From positions 16,676-80,675 of the forward strand of contig JAACWB010000005.1 of NCBI GenBank assembly GCA_009992215.1: a stretch of 64,000 nucleotides of DNA. The letters are read 5' to 3'. Numbering within the stretch: the first letter of the stretch is position 1; every line of letters starts with the position of its first letter. Source of the DNA: an archaeon (lineage in GTDB: Archaea; Nanobdellota; Nanobdellia; Pacearchaeales; GW2011-AR1). A program made the position numbers and the translations under genes. Shown piece after piece: positions 18,544-50,904 of this stretch. The notes under the pieces are model-generated. The model had not been told where the DNA came from, searched no databases, and saw only the letters and a list, made by a program, of their open reading frames with translations.

Positions 18544-18623
18544 GCCTCCATCGCATAGTGGTATTGCACCGGACTTGAGATCCGGGCCCTTTGGGCTCGC
18601 AGGTTCGATTCCTGCTGGGGGCG
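18544..18623 (+). tRNA. tRNA-Ser (anticodon TGA), class II with long variable arm, no encoded CCA
   Basis: Hand fold: acceptor GCCTCCA/TGGGGGC, D arm GCA-TAGTGGTAT-TGC, anticodon arm CCGGA-CTTGAGA-TCCGG, variable arm GCCCTTTGGGCTC, T arm GCAGG-TTCGATT-CCTGC, discriminator G. Confidence 0.85.
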
Positions 18624-18737
18624 CTAAAAGAAGGGTTCTTCGGAGCCCTTTTTTTATTTTATTTTCTTTTAGCTTTCCACTGGTCCTCGCTTCGCTGTGG
18701 TTTCTCATATTTTTCAAATATTCCAAAAGGGGGCGCT
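18617..18737 (+). repeat. Direct repeat GGGGGCGCT (tRNA-Ser 3' end) at 18617-18625 and 18729-18737
   Basis: Exact 9-mer copies 112 nt apart, each followed by a UUCG-capped hairpin and a T tract. Confidence 0.9.
18631..18657 (+). terminator. Hairpin plus T tract after tRNA-Ser
   Basis: AAGGGTTC-TTCG-GAGCCCTT followed by TTTTTTT. Confidence 0.6.
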
Positions 18738-26371: not shown

Positions 26372-26426
26372 AGTTGAAAAATAATATATTAGTTTTTAAC
26401 TATTTCTATTTAATAAAAAAGAAAAA

Positions 26427-26498
26427 TGGGAAGAGAGGGAGTCGAACCCTCGACTCCATGATCTTCAGTCATGTGCTCTCCCGCTGAGCTACCTTCCC
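26427..26498 (-). tRNA. tRNA-Phe (anticodon GAA)
   Basis: Minus strand: GGGAAGG-TA-GCTC-AGCGGGAGA-GAGC-A-CATGA-CTGAAGA-TCATG-GAGTC-GAGGG-TTCGACT-CCCTC-TCTTCCC-A. Confidence 0.9.
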
Positions 26499-26599
26499 AT
26501 GTTATATAATAGAACAGTTTTCTTTTTTAAAGTTTGTTAATTCCTTTTATCAGAACTTTTATAAATAAGTGTGAATATAATTTATTATTGAGGTTGATT

Positions 26600-28887: not shown

Positions 28888-30372
28888 ATGAAAAAATATC
28901 CTAAACAAATTCAGGAAATGTATGATTCTTTAAATGAAAAACAGCGAAGATATACAAATTTGGAATTAGCTAATCCAAAGAATGGAGAATATATGCTTGC
29001 AGTTTATCACCTTATTCCAGGTGGAGATTTAAACATGTTACAAGCCGCTGCTGAAGTTGCTGCTGAATCTTCTACGGGTACAAATTTTACAGTAAAAACT
29101 GAAACTGATTTTTCACATGAGATGAATGCCTTAACTTACAAAGTTGATTTGAAAAATAATTTAGTTTGGATGGCTTTTCCTTGGAGACTTTTTGATAGAG
29201 GAGGAAATATCCAAAATATTTTAACATATATCGTTGGAAATGTCCTTGGAATGAAAGAAATTAATGCATTAAAACTTCTTGATCTTTGGTTTCCACCTTC
29301 AATGCTTGAACAATATGATGGGCCAAGTTATACGCTTGAAGATATGAAAAAATATCTTGGAATATCAAAGAAGAAAGATAGACCTGTACTTGGAACAATT
29401 ATTAAACCAAAAATGGGATTAACGTCTTCAGAATATGCAGAAGTATGTTATGACTTTTGGAAAGGCGGAGGAGATTTTGTAAAAAATGATGAGCCTCAAG
29501 CTAATCAAGATTTTTGCCCTTATGACAAAATGGTCAAATATGTAAAAGAAGCAATGGACAAAGCCGTTAAAGAAACAGGGAACAAAAAAGTTCACTCATT
29601 TAATGTTTCGGCTTCTGATTATGATACTATGATTGAAAGATGTGAGATGATTCGTGCTGCCGGATTTGAACCTGGAAGTTATGCATTTTTAATTGATGGA
29701 CTTACTGCTGGATGGATGGCAGTTCAAACTCTAAGACGTAAATATCCTGATGTGTTTATTCATTTTCATAGAGCAATGCATGGTGCATTTACTCGTCCTG
29801 AAAATCCAATTGGATTTAGTGTTTTAATTCTTTCAAAGTTTGCAAGACTTGCAGGAGTAAGTGGTATTCATACAGGAACTGCAGGGGTTGGAAAAATGAA
29901 AGGAAATGCAAACGATGATATAATTCCCGCACATAATATTTTGTCTCTTATCGGAGAGGGATATTTCTTTGAACAATCATGGGCAAGAGTACCAAAAACT
30001 GACAAAGATGTTATACGATTAGCAAAGGAAGACCATCTTCACCACGTGATTTTGAGTGATGATTCATGGAGAGGAATGAAAAAGTGTGCGCCTATAATTT
30101 CTGGTGGCCTTAATCCAACTAAATTAAAGCCGTTTATTGATTTGATGAAGAGTACTGACTTTATTACTACAATGGGTGCTGGAGTTCATGCTCATCCTGA
30201 TGGTACTCAAGCTGGTGCAAAAGCATTAGTTCAAGCGATGGAAGCATATAACAAAAATATTTCCATAGATGTTTATGCAAAGACACATCCTGAACTAAAA
30301 AAGGCGATTGAATTTTTTACAAAACCAAAGAAAGAAGTTAAAGCGGAAGAATCTGTTGAGAAAGCAGCTTGA
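28888..30372 (+). CDS. rbcL: RuBisCO large subunit, form II/III-like
   Basis: GTIIKPKMGL; GGGDFVKNDEPQANQDFCP (form II-type KNDE, carbamyl-Lys and metal ligands intact); HFHRAMHGA; SGIHTGTAGVGKMKG. Confidence 0.9.
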   Translation: MKKYPKQIQEMYDSLNEKQRRYTNLELANPKNGEYMLAVYHLIPGGDLNMLQAAAEVAAESSTGTNFTVKTETDFSHEMNALTYKVDLKNNLVWMAFPWRLFDRGGNIQNILTYIVGNVLGMKEINALKLLDLWFPPSMLEQYDGPSYTLEDMKKYLGISKKKDRPVLGTIIKPKMGLTSSEYAEVCYDFWKGGGDFVKNDEPQANQDFCPYDKMVKYVKEAMDKAVKETGNKKVHSFNVSASDYDTMIERCEMIRAAGFEPGSYAFLIDGLTAGWMAVQTLRRKYPDVFIHFHRAMHGAFTRPENPIGFSVLILSKFARLAGVSGIHTGTAGVGKMKGNANDDIIPAHNILSLIGEGYFFEQSWARVPKTDKDVIRLAKEDHLHHVILSDDSWRGMKKCAPIISGGLNPTKLKPFIDLMKSTDFITTMGAGVHAHPDGTQAGAKALVQAMEAYNKNISIDVYAKTHPELKKAIEFFTKPKKEVKAEESVEKAA

Positions 30373-30381
30373 TATTTTAAA

Positions 30382-30840
30382 ATGATATTTCAAAATAAAA
30401 AATATCGTTCGGGAGTTTTTTTTGTTGTTTACAAAATTGAAAAAGGTAAACCTATATTTTTGATTCAAAAAAGAAAACTTCATTGGAAAGGTTATGAATT
30501 TCCAAAGGCAGGAATTGAAAAAGGAGAAAGACCAATTAATACAGTTAGAAGAGAAGTTTTTGAAGAAACTGGTTTAGCGATAAAAAAAATAAAGAATCAT
30601 CATAAGAGAGGAAAATATTTTTATAAAAAAATCTTTGAAGATAGACCAAAAATTATTGGACAAACTTGGAAACTTTATTCGGTTGAAGTTTTGGATGGTA
30701 AAATAAAAATTGATGAGAAAGAACATTATTCTGCACAGTGGTTAGATTACAAAGAGGCTAGAAAAAAAATTAGTTTTGAAAACCAAAAAGAGTGTTTAGA
30801 TATTGTTTACAATTGGTTAATGAAAAAGCTTAAATATTAA
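30382..30840 (+). CDS. NUDIX hydrolase
   Basis: Nudix box GIEKGERPINTVRREVFEETGL. Starts 9 nt after the rbcL stop. Confidence 0.8.
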   Translation: MIFQNKKYRSGVFFVVYKIEKGKPIFLIQKRKLHWKGYEFPKAGIEKGERPINTVRREVFEETGLAIKKIKNHHKRGKYFYKKIFEDRPKIIGQTWKLYSVEVLDGKIKIDEKEHYSAQWLDYKEARKKISFENQKECLDIVYNWLMKKLKY

Positions 30841-46751: not shown

Positions 46752-48278
46752 TTAATTCTTGAATTGTCTTACCAAGTCCCCAAATGCTGGTCTTGTTATG
46801 AAAACACCAACGGAGATACCAATAATTGTTGTTATTGCAAATCCTTTCAATAAACCTGCTCCTGCCCACATTAAAGGAAGAAGAGAAACTAATGTTGTAA
46901 AATATGCTCCCATAATAATTGTAAATGCTCTCTTTAATCTTTGTTTCAAACTAAGAGTTATTGTATTTGTTGATTCATCCATAATTACAATTAAATCATC
47001 AACTCCAGTACCAATCGTTGCCAATATTCCTGCAATACCTGGTAAATCTAAATTCCATTTAATTAACGCTGCAATTCCAAGAACGATTATTACTTCTGAA
47101 ACTGTTGTTACAATTAAGGCCATTGATGACCTCCAGCTTCTGTATCTAATGAAAATAATTAATGAAACAACCAAAACTGCAATTAAACCTACAAATAAAA
47201 TCGAATTGATGAATTCGTCTCCTAATGTCGGTGAAATTGTGTCTAATTTAACAACTTCTAATTTGTAAGGTAGACTCCCAGTCATTAAAATTGTTTGAAG
47301 CTTTTTCATTTGTGCTTTTGCATCTTCATAAGCTTCTTCTTGTGAAGGTCCTGTTCCTGAACCTGAAATAGAAATTTGAGTTGTTACTCTTCCTTTCAAA
47401 CTTTCTCCAATCAGTAAACTGTCAACTAATTGATCATCTAAAACTAAATCTAATTTTTGTGATAAGTAATTTCCTTGTGCAGTTACATTAACTTCTAATT
47501 TATCAGTCATTTCTGCGTGTCTCTCAGCTGCAGCTCCACTTAAAGTTACAGCAAAAGAAAACCTACAAACATATCCGTCTCCCCCTTCGCTACATCCTTC
47601 AATTCTTGCATTTTGAGCGTCACGTCCAACTGAAGCGATATCTCTATTTCCTCCAATAAAAACTGTTTCATTCCCAATTTTAGCTTCAAATTTACCTTGT
47701 TCAGAAATTAATTTTTTCAAATCTTTTGGTGTTGCTCCTGCAATTTCAATTAACATAAAATTATTTCCACTCAAATCTGAAACAGGCATAACTTTCAAAT
47801 CTGTTAAACCAAATGCGTTTAATCTGTTTGAAGTAATATCAACTAAATCATTAATTTGGTCCGTTGTTAAAGTCATATTTTCTGCTTTGATTAATGCTCT
47901 TGAACCACCGGACAAATCTAATCCTAATTCAAGATTTGTTTTTTTCAAATTTCTAACTGTTACATCTGGAAATTCCGAGGCATAAAAAATAAATTCATTA
48001 TTGTCTGCAACTATTGTTGTTTTTTCTTCACCATTCAAATATTTTGTTTGGAGTATTTGGGAAAATGAAATTAAATCAGTTACTTCCTTTCCATCTACTG
48101 AAGTAATAACCATTCCTTGACGTAAACCTTGATCATAAAGTGAATTGTTTGCGCTTTCAATAGAACTAACAACAACCCCTGTTTGCATAAATTTTAGAGG
48201 TAAGCCAAAAATTGCAATTAGTGAAAAAGCTAAAAATATAATTAATAACCAAATTTTGAAAGTTAATTTTATTTTCAT
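46752..48278 (-). CDS. secD: Protein-export membrane protein SecD with an N-terminal PDZ-like insertion
   Basis: LGLDLSGGSRA start of the SecD head; C-terminal 6-TM block GILATIGTGVDDLIVIMDE. Residues about 35-100 show GLRQGMVITSVDGKEVTDLISF (PDZ-like). Confidence 0.85.
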   Translation of the reverse strand: MKIKLTFKIWLLIIFLAFSLIAIFGLPLKFMQTGVVVSSIESANNSLYDQGLRQGMVITSVDGKEVTDLISFSQILQTKYLNGEEKTTIVADNNEFIFYASEFPDVTVRNLKKTNLELGLDLSGGSRALIKAENMTLTTDQINDLVDITSNRLNAFGLTDLKVMPVSDLSGNNFMLIEIAGATPKDLKKLISEQGKFEAKIGNETVFIGGNRDIASVGRDAQNARIEGCSEGGDGYVCRFSFAVTLSGAAAERHAEMTDKLEVNVTAQGNYLSQKLDLVLDDQLVDSLLIGESLKGRVTTQISISGSGTGPSQEEAYEDAKAQMKKLQTILMTGSLPYKLEVVKLDTISPTLGDEFINSILFVGLIAVLVVSLIIFIRYRSWRSSMALIVTTVSEVIIVLGIAALIKWNLDLPGIAGILATIGTGVDDLIVIMDESTNTITLSLKQRLKRAFTIIMGAYFTTLVSLLPLMWAGAGLLKGFAITTIIGISVGVFITRPAFGDLVRQFKN

Positions 48279-49147
48279 TTTTTAGCCTCCACATACCATT
48301 TCAATATTGAAACATTTGTTACCCAAGTGTTTAGTAAATCAAAAGCTAAACCAATTACTAAGATTGTGAAAATTTGAGTTAATACAATTGAGAAAGACCT
48401 AACAACAAAAAGTGCAACTAAAAATGCGAAAAAGGATGTTAATGTCATTGTCATACCTGTTTTCATTGAACCAAAGATTCTGCTATTTAATGAACCTTCA
48501 CTTCTTTTTAGCATTCTTGTAGTAAGTAAAATATCTGTATCTACTGAATAACCAATAAGCATAAGGAATGCTACAATTCCTGCAGTTGACATCTTCATTC
48601 CAAAAAGATTGAATGTTACTAGTGTCATTAAAATATCTGCAAAAGCGGAAATAATTACTGCTGTTGAAGGAACAACTGTTTTGAAAAGTATGAAAACAAC
48701 AATTGCCATAAATGCAAATGCTATTAATATAGCTAAAAGTAATTGTTTGTAAAATGCTTCACTTAAAATTGAACCTGTGAATTCAAAATCTGAATTCTCT
48801 CCTTCAACTAAAGAATAACCAACATATTCTTCAACTATATTTTTTGCTGAATCTCCATCAAGAGTCGTCTCTATTATTACTGCTTTTTGTTCTCCGGTTG
48901 TTATTTCATAAATTTCTCTTACATTTAAGTCGGGTAATTTATCAGCTAAGGAATTTTGCAAATCTAAAACATCAATTTTATCATAAACTGTTATTGAAGT
49001 TCCACCTGTCAAGGAAATATCTTTTTTTACAAAATCCCCTGTTGTTGAATTAAAATAAATTAAGTAACCTATTGAAAAAAGTAGTAAAACTAACGGAAGT
49101 AGTAATAATTTCTTGTAATTTCTATCGTGCCAATTACGGTTTTCCAT
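48275..49147 (-). CDS. secF: Protein-export membrane protein SecF
   Basis: AGIVAFLMLIGYSVDTDILLTTRMLKR. 4-nt overlap with secD. First ATG at 49147 (the track starts at a TTG at 49153). Confidence 0.85.
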   Translation of the reverse strand: MENRNWHDRNYKKLLLLPLVLLLFSIGYLIYFNSTTGDFVKKDISLTGGTSITVYDKIDVLDLQNSLADKLPDLNVREIYEITTGEQKAVIIETTLDGDSAKNIVEEYVGYSLVEGENSDFEFTGSILSEAFYKQLLLAILIAFAFMAIVVFILFKTVVPSTAVIISAFADILMTLVTFNLFGMKMSTAGIVAFLMLIGYSVDTDILLTTRMLKRSEGSLNSRIFGSMKTGMTMTLTSFFAFLVALFVVRSFSIVLTQIFTILVIGLAFDLLNTWVTNVSILKWYVEAKK

Positions 49148-49212
49148 TATCAAAAGAAAAACTCTCTATATATAAAGGTTATTGGATTAGAAATTATTCT
49201 CATTTTTTAATT

Positions 49213-49336
49213 AATAAAAAAGAAAATGAAACGCTCAAATTTCTTTCTTTGAAATTTGGCAAAAACAAGCTTAGACTTCGCTTAAATCTTGTTTTGACGA
49301 CTTGTCGTCTTTTAATGAATAAAAAAGAAAATGAAA
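49213..49336 (-). repeat. Direct repeat AATAAAAAAGAAAATGAAA at 49213-49231 and 49318-49336 (5S trailer)
   Basis: Exact 19-mers 105 nt apart. Extends to 27 nt with one mismatch when the flanks are included. Confidence 0.9.
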
Positions 49337-49446
49337 GACGACTTGAACAGTTCGCGTCTTGCGGGACACTACCATGGACAACGTAGGAAGCTTAACTTCT
49401 GTGTTCGGAAAGGGAACAGGTGTTTCCAACCTACTATGGCCGTCTT
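49335..49446 (-). rRNA. rrf: 5S ribosomal RNA
   Basis: Minus strand: AAGACGGCCATAGTAGGTTGGAAACACCTGTTCCCTTTCCGAACACAGAAGTTAAGCTTCCTACGTTGTCCATGGTAGTGTCCCGCAAGACGCGAACTGTTCAAGTCGTCTT. Contains the CCGAAC...GAAGTTAAGC core, and the ends pair (helix I). Confidence 0.85.
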
Positions 49447-49466
49447 CAAATTTAGAGAAGCAATTG

Positions 49467-49490
49467 GGTTTATAAAGTTTTTTATAGGGG
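49467..49490. promoter_or_regulatory. Divergent TATA pair for 5S rRNA (minus) and tRNA-Leu (plus)
   Basis: GGGTTTATAAAGTT (minus reads AACTTTATAAACCC, about 27 nt from the 5S 5' end). TTTTTTATAGGGG lies about 26 nt upstream of tRNA-Leu. Confidence 0.45.
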
Positions 49491-49509
49491 TAATTTCTGT
49501 AAATATTAT

Positions 49510-49592
49510 GCAGGAGTGCCAGAGTGGTCAAATGGGCTAGATTAAGGATCTAGTGGTGTATTCCTACGCAGGTTCGAATCCTGTCTCTTGCA
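49510..49592 (+). tRNA. tRNA-Leu, anticodon read as AAG (class II)
   Basis: GCAGGAG-TG-CCAG-AGTGGTCAA-ATGG-G-CTAGA-TTAAGGA-TCTAG-(14-nt variable)-GCAGG-TTCGAAT-CCTGT-CTCTTGC-A. Confidence 0.8.
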
Positions 49593-49667
49593 TTATTTGT
49601 CTGGGTAACTCGGCTCGCAAGCTTAATTGCAGTTAAGTTACTCTAGACAATGAAAGCAATTAAACAT

Positions 49668-49743
49668 GCCTGGGTAACTCAGTCTGGATTAGAGTGCCAC
49701 CCTCCTAAGGTGGAAGTCGCAGGTTCAAATCCTGCCTCGGGCG
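49668..49743 (+). tRNA. tRNA-Arg (anticodon CCT)
   Basis: GCCTGGG-TA-ACTC-AGTCTGGATTA-GAGT-G-CCACC-CTCCTAA-GGTGG-AAGTC-GCAGG-TTCAAAT-CCTGC-CTCGGGC-G. Confidence 0.9.
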
Positions 49744-49850
49744 TTTTAATTTGAACCAAGACGTCGCAGGCTAACAACTTTGAAATTTTAATAAATGAAT
49801 ATAATGAATTTAAGAAATTTCACAAGTTGATAGTAAAATCCTGCCTCGGG
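49727..49850 (+). repeat. Direct repeat AAATCCTGCCTCGGG (tRNA-Arg 3' end) at 49727-49741 and 49836-49850
   Basis: Exact 15-mers 109 nt apart. Confidence 0.9.
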
Positions 49851-49854
49851 AGTT

Positions 49855-50328
49855 TTATGCTATAAAGGTTAAGATTATTGCAACATAAAAAAGAGTTATC
49901 AGCTGTGTTGTTATAAAATATTTTGCTGAAATTTCATAATTATTCTTTAATTTGAAAGTTACATAAATAAAAATTATCCATTCTAAAAATAATACATGAA
50001 AATAAATAAAAAATTGATTAAAAAAAGTTATTGCAAGTGTTCTAACTCCTGCGATAATAACAAAAGACAAAACCATGTTGAATAAAAATATAGAAAAATA
50101 TTCTTTTCTTCTTTCTATTGCCCCAATTCTAATTTTTCTTGTTAATTTTTTTGAAAATTCTGAAAAGACAAAACCAAAACTAAGCCCAATAAACCAAGAG
50201 ATATATGGCTTAATATATGTAAAAATTGTCTCGAAGATGTTAAAATAATATAACTCAAAAAAAGTTATAATTCCCATTAAAAAAAATAAAGAAAATTCCA
50301 ATAAAAAGAAATTTTTCTTTTCACTCAT
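49855..50328 (-). CDS. Hypothetical polytopic membrane protein (157 aa)
   Basis: Four to five hydrophobic segments; no motif recognised. Confidence 0.4.
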   Translation of the reverse strand: MSEKKNFFLLEFSLFFLMGIITFFELYYFNIFETIFTYIKPYISWFIGLSFGFVFSEFSKKLTRKIRIGAIERRKEYFSIFLFNMVLSFVIIAGVRTLAITFFNQFFIYFHVLFLEWIIFIYVTFKLKNNYEISAKYFITTQLITLFYVAIILTFIA

Positions 50329-50411: not shown

Positions 50412-50482
50412 GCGTGGATAGTTCAGTGGCAGAATCTCTGGCTTCCAACCAGATGACCTGGGTTCGAATCCCAGTCCGCGCA
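50412..50482 (+). tRNA. tRNA-Gly (anticodon TCC)
   Basis: GCGTGGA-TA-GTTC-AGTGGCA-GAAT-C-TCTGG-CTTCCAA-CCAGA-TGAC-CTGGG-TTCGAAT-CCCAG-TCCGCGC-A. Confidence 0.9.
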
Positions 50483-50609
50483 TATTCTTACTGGTCTTCG
50501 AACGAGACGTCATATTTTGGGTCGATTGGAAAACGACTCATCCAAAATATTCCATCAAGCCAATTATTCTTTCAGAAAAATCGACTTATCCCAAGTCCGC
50601 GCATATTCT
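50473..50609 (+). repeat. Direct repeat AGTCCGCGCATATTCT (tRNA-Gly 3' end plus 6 nt of trailer) at 50473-50488 and 50594-50609
   Basis: Exact 16-mers 121 nt apart. Confidence 0.9.
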
Positions 50610-50643: not shown

Positions 50644-50904
50644 ATGAAAGAGAAAATTTCTAAAACTGAAGCAAAAGAGAAGATTAAAGAATTTTTTGAT
50701 AAAATTAAATCAAAGAGTCCAAAAGAAGTTTTGAAAATAAAAAAATTATCCATGAAAAATAGAATTCCATTGGGTATAAATAAAAAACTTTTTTGTTCTG
50801 ATTGCTTTGAACCCTACTTGGGAAATGAAAAAATTAGAATAACCAAAGGATTCAAAACAGTTACTTGTGAAAAATGTGGAAAAGTTAAAAAAATTAAATT
50901 ATAA
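50644..50904 (+). CDS. rnp4: RNase P protein component 4 (Rpp21/Rpr2-like)
   Basis: Helical Lys-rich N-terminus, then zinc ribbon FCSDCFEPYLGNEKIRITKGFKTVTCEKCGKVKKI. Confidence 0.65.
   Translation: MKEKISKTEAKEKIKEFFDKIKSKSPKEVLKIKKLSMKNRIPLGINKKLFCSDCFEPYLGNEKIRITKGFKTVTCEKCGKVKKIKL

Follow-up and report, generated by a model that had tools for sequence, protein, structure and literature searches.

Why should an intact tRNA-Arg(CCT) gene in an archaeal genome be bracketed by pieces of itself, with a fragment of its 5′ end upstream and an interrupted fragment of its 3′ end downstream? The gene lies in an AT-rich stretch of 64,000 nucleotides (nt; G+C ~29%) from a DPANN archaeon of the Pacearchaeota/Woesearchaeota/Nanoarchaeota group; we refer to this whole stretch as the window. 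The answer that we favour, and that we hold to be somewhat better than an even bet, is that the fragments are the displaced original ends of tRNA-Arg, and that small hairpin insertion modules target the ends of stable-RNA genes, duplicate the terminal segment, and leave an intact gene. The elements of the locus, in window coordinates, are as follows.

49598–49611, + strand: copy 0, the displaced 5′ end (TGTCTGGGTAACTC), tRNA positions −1 to 13, 13 of 14 nt matching (repeat search, relatives, shuffles)
49612–49666, + strand: 5′ insertion module, 55 nt
49668–49743, + strand: tRNA-Arg(CCT), the intact, intron-less, functional gene (ARAGORN; Rfam 61.6 bits, full-length model)
49749–49757, + strand: segment A (ATTTGAACC), inverted copy of T-arm bases 52–60, 9 of 9 nt matching (repeat search)
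49760–49770, + strand: segment S2′ (GACGTCGCAGG), direct copy of positions 43–53 (variable loop and T-stem 5′ strand), 10 of 11 nt matching
49771–49835, + strand: hairpin insert, 65 nt, in place of the T-loop TTC of the duplicated 3′ portion (inverted repeat)
49836–49857, + strand: copy R, the displaced 3′ end (AAATCCTGCCTCGGGAGTTTTA), positions 57–73 plus 6 nt of trailer, 21 of 22 nt matching

The core of the 5′ fragment, CTGGGTAACTC, occurs at 49601–49611 and, 69 nt away, in the gene at 49670–49680, and the match extends to TG[T/C]CTGGGTAACTC (49598–49611 versus 49667–49680). On the 3′ side, the T-stem sequence GTCGCAGG occurs at 49716–49723 and again at 49763–49770, with an extended match of GA[A/C]GTCGCAGG (49713–49723 versus 49760–49770), and the core of the 3′ fragment, AAATCCTGCCTCGGG, occurs at 49727–49741 and again at 49836–49850, as part of a match of copy R to 49727–49748 that has a single mismatch (C72 to A) and takes in the trailer GTTTTA. 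An earlier note on this DNA had named the 5′ fragment, the T-stem copy, the 3′ fragment, and an 8-bp hairpin, and sequence and repeat searches recover every one of these strings. The T-stem copy exists as described but lies 4 nt from the position given there (49763–49770, not 49759–49766). The distal repeat, described as abutting the stop codon of a membrane open reading frame (ORF), overlaps that stop codon (49855–49857) in its extended 22-nt form, which runs 6 nt beyond the tRNA end. The sequence between the copies, 55 nt on the 5′ side and 92 nt on the 3′ side, contains no ORF. The fragment strings have no further occurrence in the window, and the 65-nt insert has no other copy in it. Two T-arm-like matches, at 29659–29674 and 30506–30519, both lie inside ORFs and were set aside as chance.

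Shuffling the 150-nt flanks 20,000 times with dinucleotides preserved never produced the downstream 15-mer match (0/20,000) and produced the upstream 11-mer match 27 times (27/20,000); the fragments are distinguishable from chance. The proposal that the arrangement of a 5′ fragment, the intact gene, and an interrupted 3′ fragment did not arise at random but through insertion events is supported. ARAGORN, run over 49450–49950 in intron-tolerant and low-threshold modes, as the earlier note had suggested for a tRNA finder, reported only the intact tRNA-Arg and tRNA-Leu and made no use of the fragments.

Each side of the gene also carries an inverted copy that had been missed. On the 3′ side, ATTTGAACC is the exact reverse complement of the T-arm sequence GGTTCAAAT (49722–49730) and lies between the gene and the partial 3′ copy; on the 5′ side, GTTACTCTAGACA (49637–49649), inside the 5′ module, is an inverted copy of the 5′ fragment and makes a long hairpin with copy 0 (49597–49650). 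The fold of 49594–49667 has a ΔG of −25 kcal/mol (z −5.6; 0 of 200 shuffles equally stable). Downstream, the 8-bp stem TGAAATTT/AAATTTCA (49781–49788 and 49815–49822) is the core of an imperfect 65-nt hairpin, and in the fold of 49763–49845 (ΔG −21 kcal/mol, z −4.8) the copied T-stem strands of S2′ and R close the 65-nt insert. Homologues of the 3′ module follow tRNA-Arg at two related loci (related loci are denoted by L and a number): L012, with 80% identity over 98 nt, and L057, where the homologue is the outer of two stacked modules. The gene-derived segments vary in step with the host gene in these homologues, segment A with the T-loop in L012 (TTCGAAT with ATTCGAAAC) and S2′ with the T-stem in L057 (GTCGAAGG).

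The relatives also reveal which copies mark the ancestral gene ends. Copy 0 begins 5 nt past tRNA-Leu, which is the start site of tRNA-Arg in L073, L010, L036, L015, and L012. At tRNA-Leu itself, a conserved trailer directly follows the gene in L026 and L058 (empty sites), and the same trailer follows copy R in L019, L034, L071, and L067 (filled sites, with three insert families); a tRNA-Gly site is likewise filled in L070 and empty in L063. The suggestion that the outer fragments mark the ancestral ends of the gene is upheld both by the five start sites and by the position of the old trailer, which in filled sites comes after the distal 3′ copy. Of the two stacked modules in L057, the inner retains a perfect 20-nt repeat, whereas none is left at the outer, window-type one, indicating that new insertions adjoin the functional gene and that old copies decay. 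Polar insertion or absence events recur at the ends of RNA genes in this lineage, and they keep an intact gene.

At some loci the modules are multiplied. Tandem arrays in the order repeat, module, repeat, module, repeat are present in L109, L039, L036, L047, and L059. These arrays raise the alternative that slippage or unequal crossing-over simply duplicated tRNA-Arg locally and that the duplicate decayed, with no insertion and no special mechanism. Tandem units in L039, L036, L047, and L085 are in keeping with such a process, and arrays could grow and shrink by unequal recombination between repeats. However, the sequence between copies is unlike the missing parts of the tRNA, the boundaries of the repeats coincide with mature gene ends and loop positions, and decay explains neither the inverted copies nor the insert families shared between loci, so that we regard plain duplication as the least probable of the explanations considered here. 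The related proposal of a decayed paralogue with a T-loop insertion holds in one part, since the 3′ fragment is a partial duplicate (positions 44–73) with a 65-nt insert in its T-loop.

Several observations on assembly and layout touch the same arrays. Two or three alternations of the tRNA 3′ end with an identical module are present in L109 (6557–6830), in L059 (60–258), and upstream of tRNA-Gly in L211, an arrangement that resembles a small repeat-spacer array, but with all spacers identical. Two independent assemblies (Logan contigs L003 and L006) stop at 49783, inside the 65-nt hairpin insert, L005 breaks inside tRNA-Leu, and the contigs of three relatives (L207–L209) extend no more than ~220 nt upstream of SecF, up to the tRNA/5S cluster or not quite to it. 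Assemblies may be broken up by the repeats and hairpins, which may also explain some of the contig ends at or near this cluster.

According to the reading that we favour, a short non-coding module would have inserted at each end of tRNA-Arg, 55 nt upstream and 92 nt downstream, and each insertion would have duplicated the terminal segment, so that the intact gene stayed inside and the old end was pushed outward. The inserts would be small mobile DNA of ~25–65 nt or more, comparable to miniature inverted-repeat transposable elements (MITEs), that either land in partial duplicates of the ends of highly conserved stable-RNA genes or give rise to such duplicates. Break repair, through fold-back synthesis or template switching, could have left the host-derived copies, inverted and direct, as by-products, and the displaced fragments would be inert, locked in stable hairpins. 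Candidate enzymes are the free-standing LAGLIDADG endonucleases of the cluster, a T-loop-targeting integrase, or a single-strand (HUH) transposase.

The same structure is present at other RNA genes of the window.

50468–50488 and 50588–50609, + strand: 3′ end of tRNA-Gly(TCC), ATCCCAGTCCGCGCATATTCT, and its repeat, ATCCCAAGTCCGCGCATATTCT
49205–49336, − strand: structure at the 3′ end of 5S rRNA (gene 49333–49447)
18617–18737, + strand: structure at the 3′ end of tRNA-Ser(TGA) (gene 18544–18624), a weaker case

At tRNA-Gly, the repeat is 21 nt and the spacer ~100 nt. At 5S rRNA, the sequence R1 (TTTC and a T-rich terminator, 49310–49336) recurs ~105 nt downstream as R2 (49205–49231) with 26 of 27 nt matching; between R1 and R2 are an inverted copy, AAGACGAC, and a direct copy, AAGTCGTC, of the 5S 3′ end, followed by a ~63-nt insert with two hairpins. 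At tRNA-Ser, the 9-nt sequence GGGGGCGCT is repeated, together with a hairpin and a T-run terminator, 112 nt downstream (18729–18737). The tRNA-Phe gene (26426–26499) has no 3′ end repeat of this kind.

We extended the comparison to 192 tRNA genes of Pacearchaeota/Woesearchaeota-like genomes, comparing every tRNA with its flanking sequence after masking the other tRNAs, and using non-cognate tRNA ends as a control. The sequence covered was up to 4 kb on either side of SecF at each locus and the full 64 kb of the window. The last 22 nt of the gene are repeated (at least 10 nt exact) within 250 nt downstream in 39 of 190 cases (20.5%, versus 2.1% in the control), and with at least 14 nt in 27 of 190 (versus 3 of 1056). 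Upstream, the first 22 nt are repeated in 10 of 183 cases (5.5%, versus 0.1%). Repeats of the wrong polarity do not exceed the control, with 3.8% versus 3.8% for the 3′ end repeated upstream and 0% versus 0.7% for the 5′ end repeated downstream. The copies lie 25–190 nt downstream or 36–91 nt upstream, the repeats stop on their outer side where the mature gene does (at position 1 or −1, or at the discriminator base or the one after it), and the upstream copies lie as far from a TATA-like box as a transcription start normally does. Within the sequence covered at the 192 loci, tRNA ends were never found repeated at kilobase distance. The event is not confined to a single locus, as had been supposed: the structure is lineage-wide and stereotyped, occurs also at 5S rRNA, and comes with an inverted copy and shared families of hairpin inserts.

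These distances bear on the proposal that an element carrying its own tRNA-Arg copy had recombined into the gene, a proposal that, in its usual sense, finds no support: the 55 nt and 92 nt between the copies hold neither an ORF nor an integrase gene, and no kilobase-range repeats were seen at the 192 loci. A modified form of this idea is that the modules are remnants of a virus or plasmid, whose tyrosine integrase recombined an element-borne 3′ part of a tRNA at the T-loop, and that a later, near-total deletion left the fused arms between attL and attR. The repeat does span the T-loop to the 3′ end, as Williams (2002) is reported to have described for T-loop-targeting integrases, a T-loop sublocation class, and S2′ could be the element's core-type binding site. 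The standard signature of integration, moreover, pairs an intact tRNA on one side with a partial copy on the opposite side (PMC9897764). Against this stand the same 192 loci, which show no kilobase-distance repeat and no integrase between copies, and the dozens of independent near-total deletions, each down to 25–190 nt, that would be needed. The distal copy has an interrupted T-loop and so offers no usable attachment site, and neither the 5′ end duplications nor the 5S case nor a mirror-image copy of one insert family (see below) is expected. The core of that family has 0 matches in IMG/VR, in which the viruses of this lineage are poorly sampled and for which this core was the sole query. We consider a shrunken integrated element distinctly unlikely.

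The modules share a common anatomy, reading outward from the gene end through a short linker, segment A, S2′, the hairpin insert, and R to the old trailer. Both segment A and S2′ are copied from the part of the gene next to the junction, A in inverted and S2′ in direct orientation; the T-loop (or D-loop) of the duplicate houses the insert; and R repeats the terminal segment directly, often along with a few trailer nucleotides. Segment A is significant in 12 of 33 modules and S2′ in 11 of 33 (p < 0.05), versus ~1.7 expected. Segment A always immediately precedes S2′, so that the pair forms a host-derived stem, and it tolerates G-U but not A-C pairs. The duplication is 22 nt at tRNA-Arg of the window and 14–27 nt in relatives. 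The insert families are common to different tRNAs and species, and both the position of the T-loop junction (55/56, 56/57, or 59/60) and the length of the repeat (14–15, 17–18, or 19–20 nt) are specific to the family. The modules combine host-derived direct and inverted copies with family-specific hairpin inserts across tRNA isotypes.

Family 1 has a nearly invariant 35-nt core, GGTTTCGTTCGAAACTGAAATTTCGGACGACGGAG, with two helices. The core is near-identical after tRNA-Arg, tRNA-Gly, tRNA-Leu, and another tRNA, in hosts whose SecFs are each ~65–70% identical to that of the window, and its helix P2 has compensatory changes (TCG/CGA to TTG/CAA and TCA/TGA; CG/CG to UU/AA). A covariance model of family 1, run on 86 sequences, identified 17 real copies. 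It outperformed RNAalifold on MAFFT alignments, which gave only the T-arm, P1, and part of P2 because loop lengths vary. A pattern scan of metagenomes used a loose pattern, and ~10 of 120 matches were real. Fifteen copies lie 1–22 nt past a tRNA 3′ end in the same orientation; one mirror copy (L065, 206–284) lies 11 nt before the 5′ end of tRNA-Leu in the opposite orientation, with a host-derived stem from the D-arm. RNA made there from the tRNA promoter would be antisense, so that the mirror-image copy argues for a process at the level of DNA. As a separate observation, L155 (601–701) has a family 1 core ~40 nt past tRNA-Gln(CTG), with ATGATGAGAACC as its first segment and with no recognisable distal copy of the tRNA end.

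Could the modules be scars of DNA repair, with no mobile element at all? Breaks at the ends of RNA genes, made by the LAGLIDADG endonucleases of the cluster or by transcription-replication conflicts, would have been mended by microhomology-mediated or template-switching synthesis, leaving direct and inverted copies of the flanks together with filler, and only events that kept the gene intact would have survived. The inverted-then-direct motif at the junction resembles the footprint of snap-back synthesis or hairpin opening, 5S rRNA shows the same structure, homing-endonuclease genes recur in the cluster, and the 5′ module of the window is unique, as expected of filler DNA. However, filler would not give families with near-identical 35-nt cores across species and isotypes and would not show compensatory helix changes, and the junction position in the T-loop (55/56, 56/57, or 59/60) is family-specific. 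Repair without a mobile element is, in our judgement, unlikely, though it keeps more of our credence than any other rival.

Alternatively, the modules might function at the level of RNA. In that case the outer fragments would serve as alternative exons or belong to a tRNA that is split, permuted, or interrupted by a non-canonical intron, or else form a leader and trailer that guide the processing or folding of the precursor, for example through an antisense T-loop. DPANN archaea have many non-canonical tRNA introns and splicing endonucleases of broad specificity, according to passages of PMC3239211 and PMC5829648. Segment A varies in step with the host T-loop, accepting G-U and not A-C pairs; the distal copies vary in step with the host acceptor strand; and in several relatives a T-run terminator comes after the distal copy rather than after the tRNA. 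However, there is no in-register bulge-helix-bulge (BHB) motif able to splice the first copy to the second, and BHB-like motifs at the junction of insert and R (a BHB intron calls for 3-nt bulges and a 4-bp helix at each exon-intron junction) occur in 5 of 33 modules versus 4.1 expected from shuffles, with none in the window. Removal of 49771–49835 would leave GCAGG followed by (TA)AAATCCTGC, which lacks T54, T55, and C56, and copy R has A72 facing G1. A mirror copy at a 5′ end would be transcribed antisense, and the empty sites in relatives indicate that the module is dispensable. We judge an RNA-level role to be very unlikely.

Two specific forms of this idea fare no better. The reading as a BHB intron was ruled out by two motif scans with a positive control, the scanner recovering the canonical tRNA-Gly introns in L074 and L062. 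A split or tri-split tRNA does not fit the fragments at this locus: the outer fragments comprise only positions −1 to 13 and 43–73, with no D-loop or anticodon arm outside the intact gene, and the 5′ fragment base-pairs with the inverted copy of itself that lies downstream, not with a partner leader or trailer. Searches with Rfam 15 at the gathering score over the window and 21 related loci returned only tRNA and 5S; at E values up to 10 over the modules they returned nothing credible, and no ribozyme, C/D, or H/ACA RNA.

Several points weigh against insertion by mobile hairpin modules, the reading that we prefer. No transposase, integrase, or homing-endonuclease gene was found next to the modules of the window, and none was linked to them. 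The module ends have no sequence conservation, no terminal inverted repeats, and no short target duplication of fixed length, so that no known transposition chemistry fits. The 65-nt insert has been seen only after tRNA-Arg, in three species, with the insert families of relatives supplying the evidence for mobility, and the 5′ module of the window has no homologue in the other loci compared. The acceptor strands of tRNA-Arg differ between the window and L012, and each distal copy agrees with that of its own gene; this requires that the insertions be recent and independent, or else that gene conversion or selection act between copies, which would hint at a function. The compensatory changes in P2 imply selection on the hairpin, which could act on RNA rather than on single-stranded DNA. 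Finally, the census covers this lineage only, and its control set from unrelated contigs consists of 4 tRNAs.

Free-standing LAGLIDADG homing-endonuclease genes are present in the tRNA/5S cluster of at least 10 related loci. They are located between the genes for tRNA-Arg and tRNA-Gly in L210, L071, L020, L053, and L031 (with the same type in the cluster of L027 and L147) and beside 5S rRNA in L210, L012 (a pseudogene), L035, and L020; coordinates are 842–1672 and 2223–2876 in L210, 3014–3884 in L012, and 1421–2248 in L071. The end of one type coincides with the 5′ end of tRNA-Gly, and the type that follows 5S is degenerate in L012, the relative with the 3′ module of the window. In L210, 14-nt copies of the 3′ end of 5S lie on both sides of a ~715-nt LAGLIDADG insert located past that gene; judging from these copies, the cassette bears the same signature as the short modules on a larger scale. 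The modules of the window have no sequence link to LAGLIDADG cassettes. Derivation of the 5S module of the window from the L012/L210 cassette by deletion was also considered and rejected, since the similarity is limited to T-rich runs.

The wider setting of the locus comprises the following genes.

46752–48278, − strand: SecD
48275–49153, − strand: SecF
49333–49447, − strand: 5S rRNA (Rfam)
49509–49593, + strand: tRNA-Leu(AAG), the upstream neighbour (ARAGORN; Rfam 54.2 bits)
49855–50328, − strand: membrane ORF, 157 aa, stop codon 49855–49857
50412–50482, + strand: tRNA-Gly(TCC)

The genes near the tRNA cluster include an STT3/AglB-type oligosaccharyl transferase in addition to SecD and SecF, and contigs with these neighbours also encode RpoN, L21e, S13, and S4. 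The best matches of SecF in species-representative genomes are 61–74% identical and come from metagenome-assembled genomes with the same gene set; in the protein collection, the identical protein is followed by one at 75% identity, with nothing closer. The identical region is present on six metagenome contigs from other samples. The Leu-Arg(CCT)-Gly tRNA cluster beside SecF is kept in 80 related species-level genomes, in either orientation, and the differing orientation relative to SecF (L007–L086) points to repeated inversion. The spacing from tRNA-Arg to tRNA-Gly in relatives ranges from ~40 nt to ~1 kb. In the window, tRNA-Leu and tRNA-Arg are probably co-transcribed, given a TATA-like box ~27 nt upstream of tRNA-Leu.

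Some features of the neighbouring genes deserve mention in their own right. The tRNA-Leu beside SecF has anticodon AAG (loop TTAAGGA, perfect 5-bp stem) in the window and in most relatives (L008–L085), and CAA or TAG in the remainder; a tRNA-Leu with A34 is unusual in archaea. Many tRNA-Arg(CCT) orthologues (for example in L012, L020, L053, and L056) have a canonical anticodon-loop intron of 13–52 nt, and the gene in the window has none; ARAGORN misses several intron-bearing orthologues or miscalls them as tRNA-Trp(CCA), Thr, or Ser. An ORF of 86 aa (50644–50904) immediately past the tRNA-Gly module has two C-terminal CxxC pairs, a zinc-ribbon pattern, and no Pfam match; going by its cysteines alone, one might guess at an RNase P subunit of the Rpr2/RPP21 type.

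What do these loci contribute to the understanding of disrupted tRNA genes? In archaea, such disruption takes the form of introns at odd positions, split genes, and scattered fragments; its origin has no settled account, the leading idea being integration of a mobile element followed by recombination, and few intermediates have been seen. The present lineage displays many states side by side: sites with no insertion, fresh insertions whose terminal repeats are perfect, insertions that have stacked up and are decaying, tandem arrays, hairpin inserts in the T- and D-loops of gene-end duplicates, and homing-endonuclease genes in the cluster. If the modules are mobile, they represent a novel type of element, one that targets gene ends and leaves its essential target unharmed. 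We tentatively propose, with rather more doubt than confidence, that Pacearchaeota-like DPANN archaea harbour an undescribed class of miniature mobile DNA that homes to the 3′ and 5′ ends of tRNA genes and to 5S ends, restores its target upon insertion, and possibly supplies raw material for non-canonical T- and D-loop introns, tRNA fragments, and split tRNA genes. A literature search found no description of this structure. For the annotation of DPANN genomes, tRNA-end fragments are to be expected beside genuine tRNA genes.

Among known systems, integrative elements bounded by attL and attR share with the present structure an intact tRNA with a nearby direct repeat of its 3′ portion (T-loop to end), an inert displaced copy, and an insertion of foreign DNA; here, the repeat is the 21/22-nt match of 49727–49748 to 49836–49857, with the intact gene at 49668–49743. 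In place of an integrase and kilobases of element DNA, only 92 nt, with no ORF, lie between the repeats, whereas known integrations in archaea (Thermococcaceae) have 9–23 kb between 44-bp repeats (PMC9897764). The copies described here are 25–190 nt apart with no integrase or cargo between them, and they differ further in that 5′ ends and 5S rRNA are hit, the junction segment is copied in inverted form, and a hairpin insert occupies the distal T-loop. BHB introns and split tRNAs likewise involve a short, structured insert in a T- or D-loop, and DPANN archaea are known for disrupted tRNA genes; tRNA fragments beside tRNA genes have been proposed for Caldiarchaeum, and a mobile-element model is cited, in a passage of PMC4390854. 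Here, however, the interrupted copy lies outside the intact gene, BHB motifs are at the level of chance, splicing would yield no canonical T-loop, and there is no complementary leader or trailer.

Closer in size are the MITE-like elements derived from IS200/IS605, which are tens of nucleotides long and non-coding, have two hairpins with compensatory changes, lack terminal inverted repeats and a short target duplication, and occur in several copies per genome and in several species; the likeness rests on the hairpins and on the lack of terminal inverted repeats. Unlike them, the modules lie strictly at the ends of stable-RNA genes and always inside a partial gene-end duplicate. Casposons integrate through a Cas1-type integrase with a 14–15-bp target-site duplication at tRNA 3′ ends. 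They resemble the modules in inserting at the tRNA 3′ end, in the duplication of the last 14–20 nt, and in the possibility of tandem arrays, a comparison that rests partly on passages of PMC4779613. In contrast, the modules have no terminal inverted repeats and no Cas1 or polymerase genes, their repeat length is family-specific rather than fixed, and a simple staggered cut does not explain the host-derived S2′ and A. LAGLIDADG cassettes share the tRNA/5S cluster, and the L210 cassette has a 14-nt duplication of the 5S 3′ end with the same polarity, whereas the modules of the window have neither an ORF nor sequence similarity to them. The structure at tRNA-Arg belongs with the known insertions that target tRNA genes and leave partial copies of the gene, the element here being tiny and non-coding and one case of a lineage-wide class.

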